Assembly (NCBI GenBank): GCA_001823065.1
Contig: MHTJ01000002.1
Location: 119,532-154,319 of the forward strand
Direction: 5' to 3'
Length of the DNA stretch: 34,788 bases
DNA from: Candidatus Vogelbacteria bacterium RIFOXYD1_FULL_44_32
GTDB taxonomy: Bacteria > Patescibacteriota > Minisyncoccia > Phycocordibacterales > XYD1-FULL-46-19
Every line of letters begins with the position of its first letter. Position 1 is the first letter of the stretch. A program made the translations under genes and the position numbers. Positions 25,831 to 28,901 of this stretch are shown in pieces. Under the pieces are notes generated by a model, which saw only the letters and a program-made list of their open reading frames with translations, was not told the origin of the DNA and did not search any database.

Positions 25831-26180
25831 CAAAAAGGCACTTTTTGTGCCCCGTGAGCGAGACAACTGCTTGTCTCGCGTCAGGAGTCGAAAGGACTTT
25901 CAATGTTTGTGAGCGAAGAGCAAACAAACCTGAAAGTCACCCGCGACCGTAGGTCGAGACTCACTTATTGTTACTGTAAAAATATCTTGTCTCCCGTGCA
26001 GGAGTCGAACGCCGGAGCGCACGAAGTCGGAGGTCAGCAGAGCTGGAGGTCAGCAGAGCTCCGGTGCGAGGCGGTGCCTAGACCGAGACTTGGCGACGGC
26101 CCAGGATCGAGTCGAGGGAGACTCCTGCAAAAGTATCAGTCGAAAGTCACCCGCGACCGTAGGTCGAGACTCCTGCACCA
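25831..26180 (+). repeat. tRNA-3'-end mirror repeat array
   Basis: Antisense copies of the tRNA 3' end at 25847-25892 (split by a hairpin) and 25989-26010. Sense fragments GACTCCTGCA near 26120 and 26168. 31-nt direct repeat at 25932-62 / 26142-72. 2 x 16-nt tandem at 26029-60. Confidence 0.85.
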
Positions 26181-26261
26181 CTTCAAATCTTGCCATTTCC
26201 CAATTTAGGCATAGAATCGGTGATAGAAAAAACATCCGCATAGCGGAGGAGGATTGTAAAA

Positions 26262-26561
26262 ATGGGAACAGTAACAACAGGTGTAAATCCTCAGTTATTA
26301 CCGAGAGTCAAAGATTTGCCGAAAAGAGACAGAGCCCTTCGTTTTGGGGACAGTCTTGTCTTTCATTCCGAAACCCATCGGGTCTTGGTGGTGCGTCGGG
26401 GGCCTGATGGGCCGGTGGTTGTCCACTCGGCCGACTTCGACGGCCTTACCCATTTTGGGTTCCTTCAGTATGTCGAACAGCAGGTATATCTGTTTGGGCT
26501 TAAATACCAGAAGTCCAGCCTGGTTTTTGGCCCGACAGATATTGCTTATGATGTTTACTAG
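26262..26561 (+). CDS. GC-rich orphan hypothetical protein
   Basis: Promoter TTGCCA-16-TAGAAT (26190-26217), SD GGAGGAGG (26245-52), hairpin at 26568-26595 after the stop. Confidence 0.7.
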   Translation: MGTVTTGVNPQLLPRVKDLPKRDRALRFGDSLVFHSETHRVLVVRRGPDGPVVVHSADFDGLTHFGFLQYVEQQVYLFGLKYQKSSLVFGPTDIAYDVY

Positions 26562-26620
26562 TCTTTTGGCCCGGGGCGCGTTTGCGTTCCGGGTCGTCGT
26601 TTGTTACAAATATCATACTT

Positions 26621-27100: not shown

Positions 27101-27106
27101 AAGCCC

Positions 27107-27137
27107 AAAATATTGGACACCGAGTGTCCAATATTTT
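27107..27137. terminator. Bidirectional terminator
   Basis: AAAATATTGGACAC-CGA-GTGTCCAATATTTT. Confidence 0.8.
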
Positions 27138-27144
27138 TTACAAT

Positions 27145-27308
27145 AAAAAGGGCCGTCACTGGCTCGAGGACCCCTTTCACTCGCCGCTACTAGGGGATAC
27201 TTGGGATAATGTGTTTGGTCCCAGATGTATTGCCTGGGCACACCATCCTTAGTATTGTCTGCTCTTGCCAACCCAGATGGAATTCCTAAATGGGTTTGTG
27301 ACGGCCTT
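27145..27308 (-). ncRNA. Candidate multi-helix ncRNA with an AGUA/GAA (loop E / bulged-G) hairpin
   Basis: Closing stem GGCCGTCAC/GTGACGGCC followed by TTTTT. Several internal helices. Minus-strand promoter TTGCTA-16-TATAGT at 27340-27313. Confidence 0.65.
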
Positions 27309-27405
27309 GTTGACTATATAATATTAATCAAATTTAGCAAGATTTGGATGACAAAATTAGTATTATAGGCCAAAAAATAAGGGTATTGTAAGGTGGCTAA
27401 AACAC

Positions 27406-27434
27406 TTGACAAAATAGATAGAAAAGTGTATAAT
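27406..27434 (+). promoter_or_regulatory. Perfect consensus sigma70 promoter
   Basis: TTGACA-17-TATAAT. Confidence 0.85.
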
Positions 27435-27497
27435 CTAGGATAGGTAGTGTGGGTACCAGACAAAGACTCGCGTAGGCGGGTTGAAGGAGAAAGAAGA

Positions 27498-27977
27498 ATG
27501 AACAAAAAAGTGGAACCAATTCCTGAAGATAAGCGTCTTCAAGAATTGGTTGAAGAAGCTCTGGTCGGAGGCCAGAGCCGAGGTCTCACCCCAGAAATCG
27601 ACGGCGCCATGGCCACCATGGACTGCTATGAGCTGTCCAAGATGGCACAGTCTCTTTCGGGAGGAAGAGTGCATGCGCTCTCCTCATCGGAAGTCAATTC
27701 CATTGCTGGTGGAGCGGTCTCATCTTTTGAGTCTAGGTGGCTCGCCACTCAGATTCTGGAGGGAGATCGCGAACAGTTCTTGTTGGAGAACCCGGAATTC
27801 ATTTCCTCTTCAGAAGAAGAGGGTAGCGAATTCGGGTTTTGGAATCAGGCGGCGCGGGTGAAGGGGGAGGAGGTGCGGACTGCGGTGGTGCTGGCCTGGC
27901 ACGGTAAGTATGTGCGGGTCTCCACGCGCCGGTTGCGCGTCGGGGGTGTTCCAATTTTGTTCTACGTCAATGTTTAG
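27498..27977 (+). CDS. GC-rich orphan hypothetical protein
   Basis: ATG at 27498 after SD GAAGGAG. Consensus promoter upstream and terminator downstream. Confidence 0.7.
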   Translation: MNKKVEPIPEDKRLQELVEEALVGGQSRGLTPEIDGAMATMDCYELSKMAQSLSGGRVHALSSSEVNSIAGGAVSSFESRWLATQILEGDREQFLLENPEFISSSEEEGSEFGFWNQAARVKGEEVRTAVVLAWHGKYVRVSTRRLRVGGVPILFYVNV

Positions 27978-28034: not shown

Positions 28035-28901
28035 TTACTTCTGACACTTCTCACAAAAGTGAGTTCCGCGTCCTGCGTGTTTTATTTTAGATATTTTAGT
28101 GCCACAGGTTGTGCAGGGTAGATTGGCACGGCCGTAAACATTTAAGTATTTTACAAAACCACCTTTCTCGCCCGTTGAGGTAACATAATTGCGGGCCGAG
28201 GTACCTTTCATTTTGATGGAGAGTTTTAGGACGGTGAGCATGGATTTATATAATTTTTCAATTTCACTTTTTGAAAGACTGAAAATTTTCCGAGTGGGGA
28301 GTACTTTAGCGAGGAAGCTAGCTTCGTCTATATAAATATTACCCATACCAGCGATGAGGTGCTGGTCGAAGAGGGTTTGCTTGATAGTCCGATTTGGATA
28401 CTTGGTGAGAAGCTCGGTAAAAATATTGAGGGTAAACTTTTTATCCAAAGGTTCAGCTCCGTGCGGGTCCAAAATGATATTTTTTTCCGCCTCGGTTACT
28501 AACTTGAGCCAGCCAAATTTGCGCAGGTCGTTGAAATAGAGGGTAGAGCCGTCGGTAAATTTAAACTCGGCCTGGGTATAGTTGTTTGGCAGATTTCTGC
28601 CGCCGTCACGCTGGGGGTGGCCGCCAACTACAGCTTTGCCAGTTTTGGGAACGAATATAAGCTGGCCGGTCATCTTGAGGTGAACTAGGAAAAAGTGTTT
28701 ACCCGAGAGGGAAATGACCACAATCTTGGCTCGGCGGGATACGCCCAAGACTTTTTTCTTGCTAATATTTTGGGCAAAGTCTTGGGCCGAAAGTGGGAGG
28801 ACCATTTTAGGCACGTGAACAACCACCGACTTGAAAGTCTTGCCACTGATCGCTTTATTTAATTGTCGGGAGACAGTTTCTACCTCTGGTAATTCAGGCA
28901 T
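28035..28901 (-). CDS. mutM: Formamidopyrimidine-DNA glycosylase Fpg
   Basis: MPELPEVE, HLKMTG, DLRKFG, GMGNIYIDE, C-terminal Zn finger. Confidence 0.97.
   Translation of the reverse strand: MPELPEVETVSRQLNKAISGKTFKSVVVHVPKMVLPLSAQDFAQNISKKKVLGVSRRAKIVVISLSGKHFFLVHLKMTGQLIFVPKTGKAVVGGHPQRDGGRNLPNNYTQAEFKFTDGSTLYFNDLRKFGWLKLVTEAEKNIILDPHGAEPLDKKFTLNIFTELLTKYPNRTIKQTLFDQHLIAGMGNIYIDEASFLAKVLPTRKIFSLSKSEIEKLYKSMLTVLKLSIKMKGTSARNYVTSTGEKGGFVKYLNVYGRANLPCTTCGTKISKIKHAGRGTHFCEKCQK

Follow-up and report, generated by a model that had tools for sequence, protein, structure and literature searches.

We analysed a window of 34,788 nucleotides (nt) from the genome of Candidatus Vogelbacteria bacterium RIFOXYD1_FULL_44_32 (contig MHTJ01000002.1, positions 119,532 to 154,319 of the forward strand; genome G000 in our comparisons), for which an initial annotation, made from the letters alone, had proposed an unannotated structured noncoding RNA. 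The candidate small RNA (sRNA) gene lies at 27145..27310 of the window on the minus strand and measures about 157 nt counted from stem to stem; the 5' tail and the terminal U-run bring it to 166 nt. It is preceded by a sigma70-like promoter (27313..27340, minus strand) composed of a -35 box TTGCTA (27340-27335), a 16-nt spacer and a -10 box TATAGT (27318-27313); this promoter was found where it had been predicted, with 9 of 12 positions matching the consensus, and its -10 box ends 6 nt ahead of the closing stem, P1. All structural elements of the RNA are likewise on the minus strand. The 5' strand of P1, GGCCGUCAC (27298..27306), forms 9 pairs with the 3' strand GUGACGGCC (27159-27151), which runs into CUUUUU (27150-27145), so that 27145..27159 is presumed to be an intrinsic terminator. 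P1 encloses a hairpin, P2 (27270..27296), in which AACCCA pairs with UGGGUU around a 15-nt loop containing the palindrome GGAAUUCC, and a three-part helix (27161..27269) that pairs GGC-GAG-GAC (27269-27257) with GUC-CUC-GCC (27171-27161). The latter surrounds two inner hairpins: a long one (27197..27255) built from AUACU/AGUAU, GGAUGGUGUG/CACAUUAUCC and CCCAG/CUGGG, and a hairpin resembling helix 13 of 23S ribosomal RNA (rRNA) at 27171..27196, of the form CCCCU-AGUA-GCGGCGAGU-GAA-AGGGG, with GC GGCGA GU as its inner part.

The structure was examined by thermodynamic folding with ViennaRNA. The minimum free energy (MFE) fold of 27310-27145 (minus strand) contained the closing stem with its U-run and every internal helix listed in the initial annotation, P2 and the long inner hairpin among them. 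Its energy was -64 kcal/mol, compared to -45.3 +/- 4.0 for 200 dinucleotide shuffles (z -4.69), and none of the 200 shuffles equalled it. The overall fold is branched and does not form a rod with a central bubble. The two strands fold nearly alike (-63.8 for the minus strand, which uses 4 G-U pairs, and -60.8 for the plus strand), and the strand is therefore not fixed by folding energy. The assignment to the minus strand relies instead on three features: the promoter, the U-run and the orientation in which the motif resembles 23S rRNA.

Homologues were collected with covariance models in 43 genomes of the same taxonomic family, which comprise 22 genera and include the window's own genome. Model R1, built from the window sequence alone, gave three full-length matches among the 42 other genomes (G035, G016 and G006; 24.9-31.3 bits). 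Model R3 was built only from these three copies (alignment A5), with the structure annotated by hand; built without the window, it recovered 27145-27310 (minus strand) at full length with 37.5 bits and a nominal E-value of 1.1e-7. R3 further matched G028 (55.8 bits) and G954 (43.3 bits), and it picked up an additional copy in G035 that scores lower (G035b, 20.7 bits). Full-length homologues, whose collection had been suggested as a check, were thus obtained from five other genomes. The pattern GGCCRTCRCA...GYGAYGGCC, derived from P1, occurs in six of the 43 family genomes including G000, distributed over 4 of the 22 genera. Three additional matches were discarded: those in G012 and G141 are real 23S rRNA, and the one at G016:C9 is a chance occurrence of the P1 pattern without a U-run. 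A 206-nt query found one full copy in the window's genome, and the element is hence single-copy; the idea of a repeat of the type of repetitive extragenic palindromic (REP) sequences or miniature inverted-repeat transposable elements was rejected on this ground, the repeated unit being a neighbouring palindrome described below.

Across the seven copies, the architecture is kept while much of the sequence changes. Common to all seven are a 4-5-nt tail, P1, the P2 hairpin right after P1 and the U-run after P1, with the P1 stem and U-run retained together in every copy. P1 is 9 bp long in six copies and 8 bp in G035b; 98% of its cells are paired across the seven copies, and two of its positions switch from A-U to G-C. 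The sequence of P2 is different in each genome, and its pairing is retained in 100% of cells, with three of four pairs changed on both sides. The GAG/CUC helix is common to the relatives, taking the form GAA/UUC in G006. At the position of the long inner hairpin, which is found only in the window's genome, the hairpins of the relatives are shorter and unrelated to it; the whole RNA measures 93-136 nt in these genomes. The inner hairpin core AGUAG(C/U)GGCGAG(C/U)GAA is present in five copies.

The pairing was quantified in alignment A7, which comprises the seven copies and was itself fitted to the model. In this alignment, 95.0% of 159 cells were standard pairs, compared to 85.5 +/- 1.4% in shuffles (0 of 500 reached the observed value), and changes on both sides were found in 8 of 25 pairs (1 of 500 shuffles). 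When partners were shifted by 1-3 columns, pairing dropped to 24-41%. Moreover, when the copies were aligned with MAFFT without fitting to a model and folded with RNAalifold, P1, P2 and the inner hairpin's stem emerged again, and 5 of the pairs carry changes in both partners. The element is a covarying conserved noncoding structure at a fixed locus, and we consider it very likely that it represents a real structured RNA family. The window copy displays the features that define this family, namely P1 (GGCCRUCRC/GYGAYGGCC) with its U-run, P2, the GAG/CUC helix and an upstream fpg gene. Judged by these comparisons, it appears to belong to a previously undescribed small-RNA family that is restricted to one family of Vogelbacteria-type Patescibacteria. 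The carriers are a few ultra-small groundwater bacteria of the Parcubacteria group of Patescibacteria. The proposal of an unannotated structured noncoding RNA was in this respect well founded, since there is no Rfam match, the overlapping open reading frame (ORF) has no homologue, and the homologues in five other genomes carry compensatory changes.

Conservation was strongest in the 23S-like hairpin. Mean pairwise identity among the five hairpin-bearing copies was 0.95 in the 16-nt core and 0.91 in P1, compared to 0.46 in the 5' middle and 0.71 in the 3' part, and the sole changes in the core are C to U substitutions at paired positions, where wobble pairs are kept. The likeness of this AGUA/GAA hairpin to 23S rRNA, pointed out from the sequence alone, was borne out by three comparisons. 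Positions 27196-27171 aligned without gaps to positions 237-262 of the Rfam model LSU_rRNA_bacteria (9.9 bits, E 0.31 for 176 nt), which we take to be helix 13. A hidden Markov model (HMM) of 26 relatives' 23S segments, used with nhmmer, matched the element at 27202-27171 only (20.8 bits, E 5e-6), and covariance model R2, made from 25 relatives' 23S segments (alignment A3), at 27196-27171 only (26.4 bits, E 6.5e-6). On these alignments, the likeness of the hairpin to 23S rRNA is far above chance. It is limited to about 26-33 nt: the adjacent 23S hairpin and the other flanks gave no match, and a semi-global comparison of the 5' part of the element to 23S rRNA gave p ~0.03-0.05 against shuffles, which is too weak. 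The hairpin holds all parts of the helix-13 module: inside a paired stem lies a sarcin-ricin (bulged-G) motif made of AGUA and GAA, on which a 2-bp stem with a GGCGA loop sits as a cap. This agrees with a sarcin-ricin motif that bears the label '23S-H13 E. coli' in a published work (PMC8450098).

The window hairpin and the 23S rRNA of the same genome are identical at 23 of 26 positions. The genome's own 23S copy of the hairpin lies at G000:C2:219307-219333, on the same contig, and the 23S gene is intact there (Rfam on locus L002). Since this gene lies elsewhere and is complete over the region of the hairpin, the window holds an extra copy of one hairpin and no piece of a split rRNA. An origin as a 23S rRNA fragment or pseudogene was rejected, as neither the HMM nor R2 detected collinear 23S similarity beyond the single hairpin. 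A longer kinship was also considered, because R1 matched relatives' 23S rRNA over its model positions 54-140; it was dismissed when the reciprocal HMM and covariance model aligned the helix-13 hairpin only. In the relatives' 23S rRNA, the small hairpin directly before helix 13 is expanded to widely differing sizes (for instance in L002:1392-1539 and L015:1489-1731); the segments around it span 95-243 nt, and its sequence is lineage-specific.

We then asked how often the core occurs outside 23S genes. The exact 23S-form 16-mer was present in 106 of 401 sampled genomes of the phylum, with at least 2 copies only in G000, G464, G492 and G543. The second copies in G464 and G492 were true 23S rRNA. 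Leaving out G543 (10 matches on small contigs), G000 is the only one of the 401 with an exact 23S-form core outside a 23S gene. BLAST of the 206-nt region against 60 relatives matched only their 23S helix 13, and R3 on 150 genomes of the order gave a single match, that genome's own 23S rRNA. The strict combination of hairpin and P1 pattern, scanned over 400 genomes of the order, was found in G006 only, a family member. With the 114 nt beyond the hairpin as query, 400 genomes of the class returned noise only, and cultured-phage records gave no match beyond host 23S contamination. In an exact-pattern scan, the window's 26-mer and 23-mer were not found in genome contigs or metagenome contigs; the relatives' 21-mer was found at 19 loci, among which the sRNA copies are identical to known ones and the rest are mostly true 23S rRNA.

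Phage-borne look-alikes of helix 13 were considered and rejected. The 16-mer occurs at 26 IMG/VR loci, 5 of which are real 23S rRNA, and a flanking stem of at least 6 bp was seen at 3 of the other 21 loci, where 5% is expected; the set is not significant. In a few viral contigs (L072, L081, L079, L085), the exact 23S 16-mer does sit on top of a perfect flanking stem outside rRNA. Two of these are curious: in L072 the stem has 7 bp and lies between two tRNA genes, and in L081 it has 10 bp and runs into a U-run. The 16-mer of L085 is located ~35 nt ahead of an ORF that reads like a reverse transcriptase.

Promoter and terminator motifs, as expected of a stand-alone sRNA gene, are present at a conserved position. 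A promoter match of at least 8/12 whose -10 box ends 6-9 nt before P1 was found in 5 of 7 copies, compared to 7% of control sites. In the relatives, it consists of TTGCCA or TTGTCA, 17 nt and TAnnnT, with the -35 box within the last codons of fpg. The small RNA is presumably transcribed, as a molecule of ~160 nt here and of 93-136 nt in the relatives.

The constant neighbour of the RNA is fpg/mutM, upstream on the same strand. In the window, this gene is found at 28035..28901 (minus strand; Pfam Fapy_DNA_glyco, H2TH and zf-FPG). In relatives it directly precedes the RNA: in G016, G006, G028 and G954, only 20-30 nt separate the stop codon of fpg/mutM from the start of the RNA, which lies on the same strand. 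Pfam domains confirm fpg in the window, in G016 and in G006; in the other genomes the gene was recognised from its translation. In the window, 725 nt holding an opposite-strand gene lie between fpg and the RNA, and only a plain hairpin follows the window's own fpg. An opposite-strand cassette is inserted next to the RNA both in G035 and in G000. The inserted gene of the window (27498..27977, plus strand) encodes 159 amino acids (aa) and has a perfect promoter, TTGACA-17-TATAAT (27406-27434). Its product matched only itself among 5.8 billion proteins and had no Pfam, PADLOC, PHROGs or NCBIfam family. This gene was rejected as a partner of the RNA because it is an orphan without family and the homologous RNAs have other neighbours. 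In G035 (L107; G035:C7:57545-60660), the RNA is present as two diverged copies, one on either side of an opposite-strand two-gene cassette that, judging from its translations, may encode a RelE/ParE-like toxin and an antitoxin; the copy adjoining fpg in this genome is without the helix-13 hairpin.

On its other side, the RNA is followed by a convergent gene in all six genomes, which encodes SpoU, a cyclophilin-like protein, an asparaginase-like protein or a membrane protein. SpoU is the immediate neighbour in G000 and G035; in G006, the gene of the membrane protein lies between it and the RNA. The SpoU protein of the window is a catalytic-domain-only SPOUT 2'-O-methyltransferase, nearest to RlmB and below the cut-off of that family. 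The convergence with an RNA methyltransferase gene had been pointed out in the initial annotation, and the position was correct; it is an accident of gene order, and the convergent neighbour differs in three of the five other genomes. We read the adjacency of SpoU as gene order, not as function.

In the four other genomes of the genus, the element is absent downstream of SpoU. In G003 and G004, the SpoU stop codon leads straight into a promoter module common to both, which drives unrelated orphan genes, and in G002 a 113-aa ORF comes after the same palindrome as in the window. The interval between SpoU and fpg is a hotspot in which the promoter module AAATAAGGGTAT...TTGACAAAATAG...TATAAT (27350-27440 in the window) is conserved (L023, L024, L026) and drives a different orphan in each species (159 aa in the window, 204 in G003, 242 in G004).

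The palindrome is a REP-like sequence of 38 nt (27103..27140, on neither strand in particular) located between the RNA and the SpoU stop codon, and it is no part of the RNA family. It probably acts as a terminator in both directions. It has the form AAAATATTGGACAC-CGAG-GTGTCCAATATTTT and is present at at least 8 sites in the genome, among them C2:9993, 14512 and 63263, C3:317517, C4:61658, 61882 and 62366, and the window site 27103-27140. On C4, an ORF in which part of a Y1_Tnp (IS200-like) domain is recognised lies between two of the palindromes, which is the layout of a REP-associated transposase. In the source metagenome, the sequencing depth of the palindrome was 150, compared to ~20 for its flanks.

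Elsewhere in the window, a GC-rich stretch (25900-26180) without a convincing ORF and without an Rfam match follows tRNA-Lys(UUU). Within it, the 31-nt sequence GAAAGTCACCCGCGACCGTAGGTCGAGACTC is directly repeated, at 25932 and at 26143, and GGAGGTCAGCAGAGCT occurs in tandem. It is followed on the plus strand by a 99-aa gene (26262-26561) with a ribosome-binding site, a promoter-like TTGCCA-16-TAGAAT (26190-26217) and a terminator (26567-26596), the product of which had no Pfam or NCBIfam family.

The element was compared to known RNA classes. Using both gathering and E-value thresholds, Rfam searches of the window, of a 176-nt stretch around the element and of the five homologue loci returned only a tRNA and noise, so that the suggested Infernal search for a known family yielded none. 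A retron, group II intron or diversity-generating retroelement (DGR) RNA was rejected, as the genome has no RVT_1 domain and no intron model matched, the best match being Phage_DGR with E 2.9. A ribosomal-protein leader acting in cis was also rejected, given that the downstream gene is convergent in six of six genomes, where such a leader would lie in the 5' untranslated region of a ribosomal-protein gene on its own strand.

On balance, we think it probable that the element is a real sRNA gene of a new family that works via its helix-13 copy. Its conserved architecture places P2 and the GAG/CUC helix inside P1, and the variable hairpin and the helix-13 copy inside the GAG/CUC helix. The RNA would be transcribed from its own sigma70-type promoter, and transcription would stop at P1 and the U-run, which would also end fpg transcripts, a layout as in sRNAs produced from the 3' end of mRNAs. 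The RNA would then act via the helix-13 copy, which presents the sarcin-ricin module and its GGCGA cap just as they occur in the ribosome. Its ligand may be a protein that reads helix 13 in 23S rRNA (a ribosomal protein, an assembly factor or a nuclease), for which the RNA could be a decoy, a store or a sensor. The near-invariance of the core while the rest drifts fits a ligand common to the RNA and 23S rRNA; that the helix-13 copy is a functional ligand site seems to us an evenly balanced proposition. An action in trans as a decoy is a tentative suggestion that we rate as rather unlikely, and we are just as doubtful of the fuller picture, in which a free-standing rRNA mimic captures a reader of helix 13 (a ribosomal protein, an assembly helper, or else a nuclease or toxin directed at rRNA) and thereby tunes ribosome building or protects the ribosome in bacteria whose genomes are minimal. 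The earlier proposal of an rRNA mimic or decoy had a mixed outcome: the core stays near-unchanged while the rest drifts, but two of seven copies are without an intact hairpin, and the function is inferred only.

Several observations weigh against an sRNA gene working through this hairpin. The hairpin is degenerate in G954 and absent in G035b, and with two of seven copies lacking an intact form it is therefore not indispensable. The element is missing from all four other genomes of the same genus (80-99% complete; searched with R1, R3 and the P1 pattern); the family is tiny and patchy, with six of the 43 genomes, and two 150-genome searches of the order revealed no true member outside the taxonomic family, the inspected matches being 23S rRNA. 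The E-values of the models are approximate, as the tool itself states. When its filters are switched off, R3 returns the element of the window as 27145-27277 only (17.6 bits, E 0.022), which we infer to be due to the element being longer than the scanning window of the model, and with the stricter filters of a genome scan R3 gives no match in G000. Alignment A7 was fitted to the model, and its seven sequences stem from only six genomes, which are related, so that the covariation counts are not independent. Promoter-like hexamers are frequent in this AT-rich DNA: 6 matches as good as that of the window element are found in 2.4 kb, compared to 2.2 expected from shuffles, and the -35 box of the relatives is partly dictated by the codons of the fpg zinc finger. 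Finally, 13 sequencing runs contain the locus and none of them is RNA; contigs from 4 of these runs provided identical sequence only, which favours neither side.

The main alternative is that the element is part of the fpg transcript and acts only in cis, as an elaborate 3' terminator, stabiliser or insulator between convergent genes, with the hairpin serving as a sturdy module and without any function in trans. In 4 of the 5 other genomes, nothing else lies between the fpg stop codon and the element, and P1 with its U-run is the sole terminator-like feature; the next gene is convergent in every case; two copies manage without the hairpin; and a simple hairpin follows fpg in a family genome that lacks the element (G003). 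However, a terminator stem enclosing 75-140 nt of conserved covarying structure is, to our knowledge, unusual among intrinsic terminators, and a promoter is placed consistently ahead of the element. Moreover, the window copy has been cut off from fpg by 725 nt and an opposite-strand gene, yet P1, P2, the hairpin and the promoter were kept, and stability alone does not require the near-invariance of 16 nt identical to 23S rRNA. We regard a purely cis-acting element as possible but not probable. It is less plausible still that the locus is a relic in decay, left by 23S rDNA or by a mobile element and trapped in a variable intergenic hotspot, with look-alikes of promoter and terminator arising by chance. 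The SpoU-fpg interval does carry different orphan genes behind one promoter module, a REP-like repeat abuts the element, and the four other genomes of the genus are without it. Nevertheless, homologues in four genera have retained the structure by compensatory changes, the 23S likeness covers 26-33 nt only without neighbouring 23S sequence, the element is single-copy, and the genome contains neither a reverse transcriptase nor a match to intron, retron or DGR RNAs; we thus hold a relic to be improbable.

A very divergent housekeeping RNA, such as the signal recognition particle (SRP) RNA or 6S RNA, was weighed because the models Bacteria_small_SRP, Bacteria_large_SRP and 6S have no match in the genome, because SRP RNA was found in none of 21 genomes, and because the ends of the element are paired, as in these RNAs. 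A replacement of either was rejected on distribution, as six of 43 family genomes fit an essential RNA poorly. For 6S RNA, no match was obtained on the 176 nt even at E <=10, and the branched fold contrasts with a rod with a central bubble. SRP RNA failed in the same way, with no SRP model matching the 176 nt at E <=10; its protein partners were not found in the genome either (no Ffh M domain, and SRP54 at 17.9 bits, below the cut-off). We therefore consider a housekeeping RNA very improbable. As for the SRP itself, RF00169 was absent from G000 and 20 relatives, RF01854 had no match in G000, PF02978 (SRP_SPB) was not found, and the SRP54 GTPase domain PF00448 scored below its cut-off, while 5S rRNA and RNase P RNA are present in the genome; an absence of the SRP pathway, which holds for these queries, would be striking if true. 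The least credible option, to which we give next to no weight, is that the region codes for a 66-aa protein from an overlapping ORF (27271-27071, minus strand). This frame is open and has a TTG start, but it continues past the U-run and through the REP palindrome until it lies antisense to SpoU, and the elements of the relatives are only 93-136 nt long with different middles. Conservation at the protein level, named beforehand as evidence that would speak against an RNA, was not observed: a search of 5.8 billion proteins gave no homologue of the product, and Pfam, PHROGs and PADLOC assigned it to no family.

If the element is an sRNA gene working via its helix-13 copy, it would resemble several known systems in part. 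Its hairpin has the same layout as helix 13 of 23S rRNA (flanking stem, AGUA, 2-bp stem, GGCGA loop, GAA, flanking stem). In contrast to helix 13, the window copy lies outside any rRNA gene, and its flanking stem is better paired than that of the genome's own 23S rRNA; in the relatives, the flanking stem of the RNA reads GCC(C)/GGC, unlike the 23S sequence. Leaders of ribosomal-protein genes (r-leaders) are likewise nonribosomal RNAs with a look-alike of a protein-binding rRNA site. An archaeal eL15 leader candidate resembles a bulged-G module, according to one report (PMC7247131). R-leaders sit in the 5' untranslated region of the ribosomal-protein gene that they control, whereas the small RNA has no downstream gene on the same strand in six genomes; it is thus no r-leader, because no gene follows it, though it would be most like r-leaders in its working.

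The genetic layout points to a different class. sRNAs of the DapZ/MicL type derive from the 3' end of an mRNA; their promoter lies within the gene upstream, with which they have the terminator in common. Similarly, the promoter of the relatives overlaps the last codons of fpg, and the end stem with its U-run would terminate both fpg and the sRNA. DapZ/MicL-type sRNAs are Hfq dependent and use a short seed, whereas the small RNA is predicted to be almost fully folded, with a conserved part that looks like a protein-type binding module. 6S RNA and CsrB/RsmZ are decoy RNAs that titrate proteins, and the action proposed here would be the same, a stable RNA imitating the nucleic-acid target of a protein; there is, however, no sequence or structure match to 6S RNA, and the small RNA has a single binding module rather than the many GGA loops of CsrB/RsmZ. 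A weak alignment to RF03022, Phage_DGR (13.4 bits), places the AGUA...GAA hairpin and a preceding AAnACAUUA in register, but its E-value is 2.9, the gathering score of this model is 50 bits, and the genome has no reverse transcriptase and no second copy as a variable repeat.

Literature searches of limited coverage returned no description of such an RNA or of stand-alone trans-acting rRNA decoys in bacteria; mimicry was found in cis leaders only. These searches also found almost no described regulatory RNAs of Patescibacteria, the candidate phyla radiation, and nothing useful on binders of helix 13.

If the element were merely an ornate fpg terminator, it would be a curiosity of one bacterial family. 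That the core of a 23S hairpin is kept letter for letter while the rest of the molecule drifts suggests a reader common to the ribosome and the RNA. Should this be true, rRNA mimicry would extend from cis leaders to a free-standing RNA, which would provide a simple bait for the ligand of helix 13. The genomes of Patescibacteria are tiny, and a conserved, covarying small RNA is a rare handle on their RNA biology.

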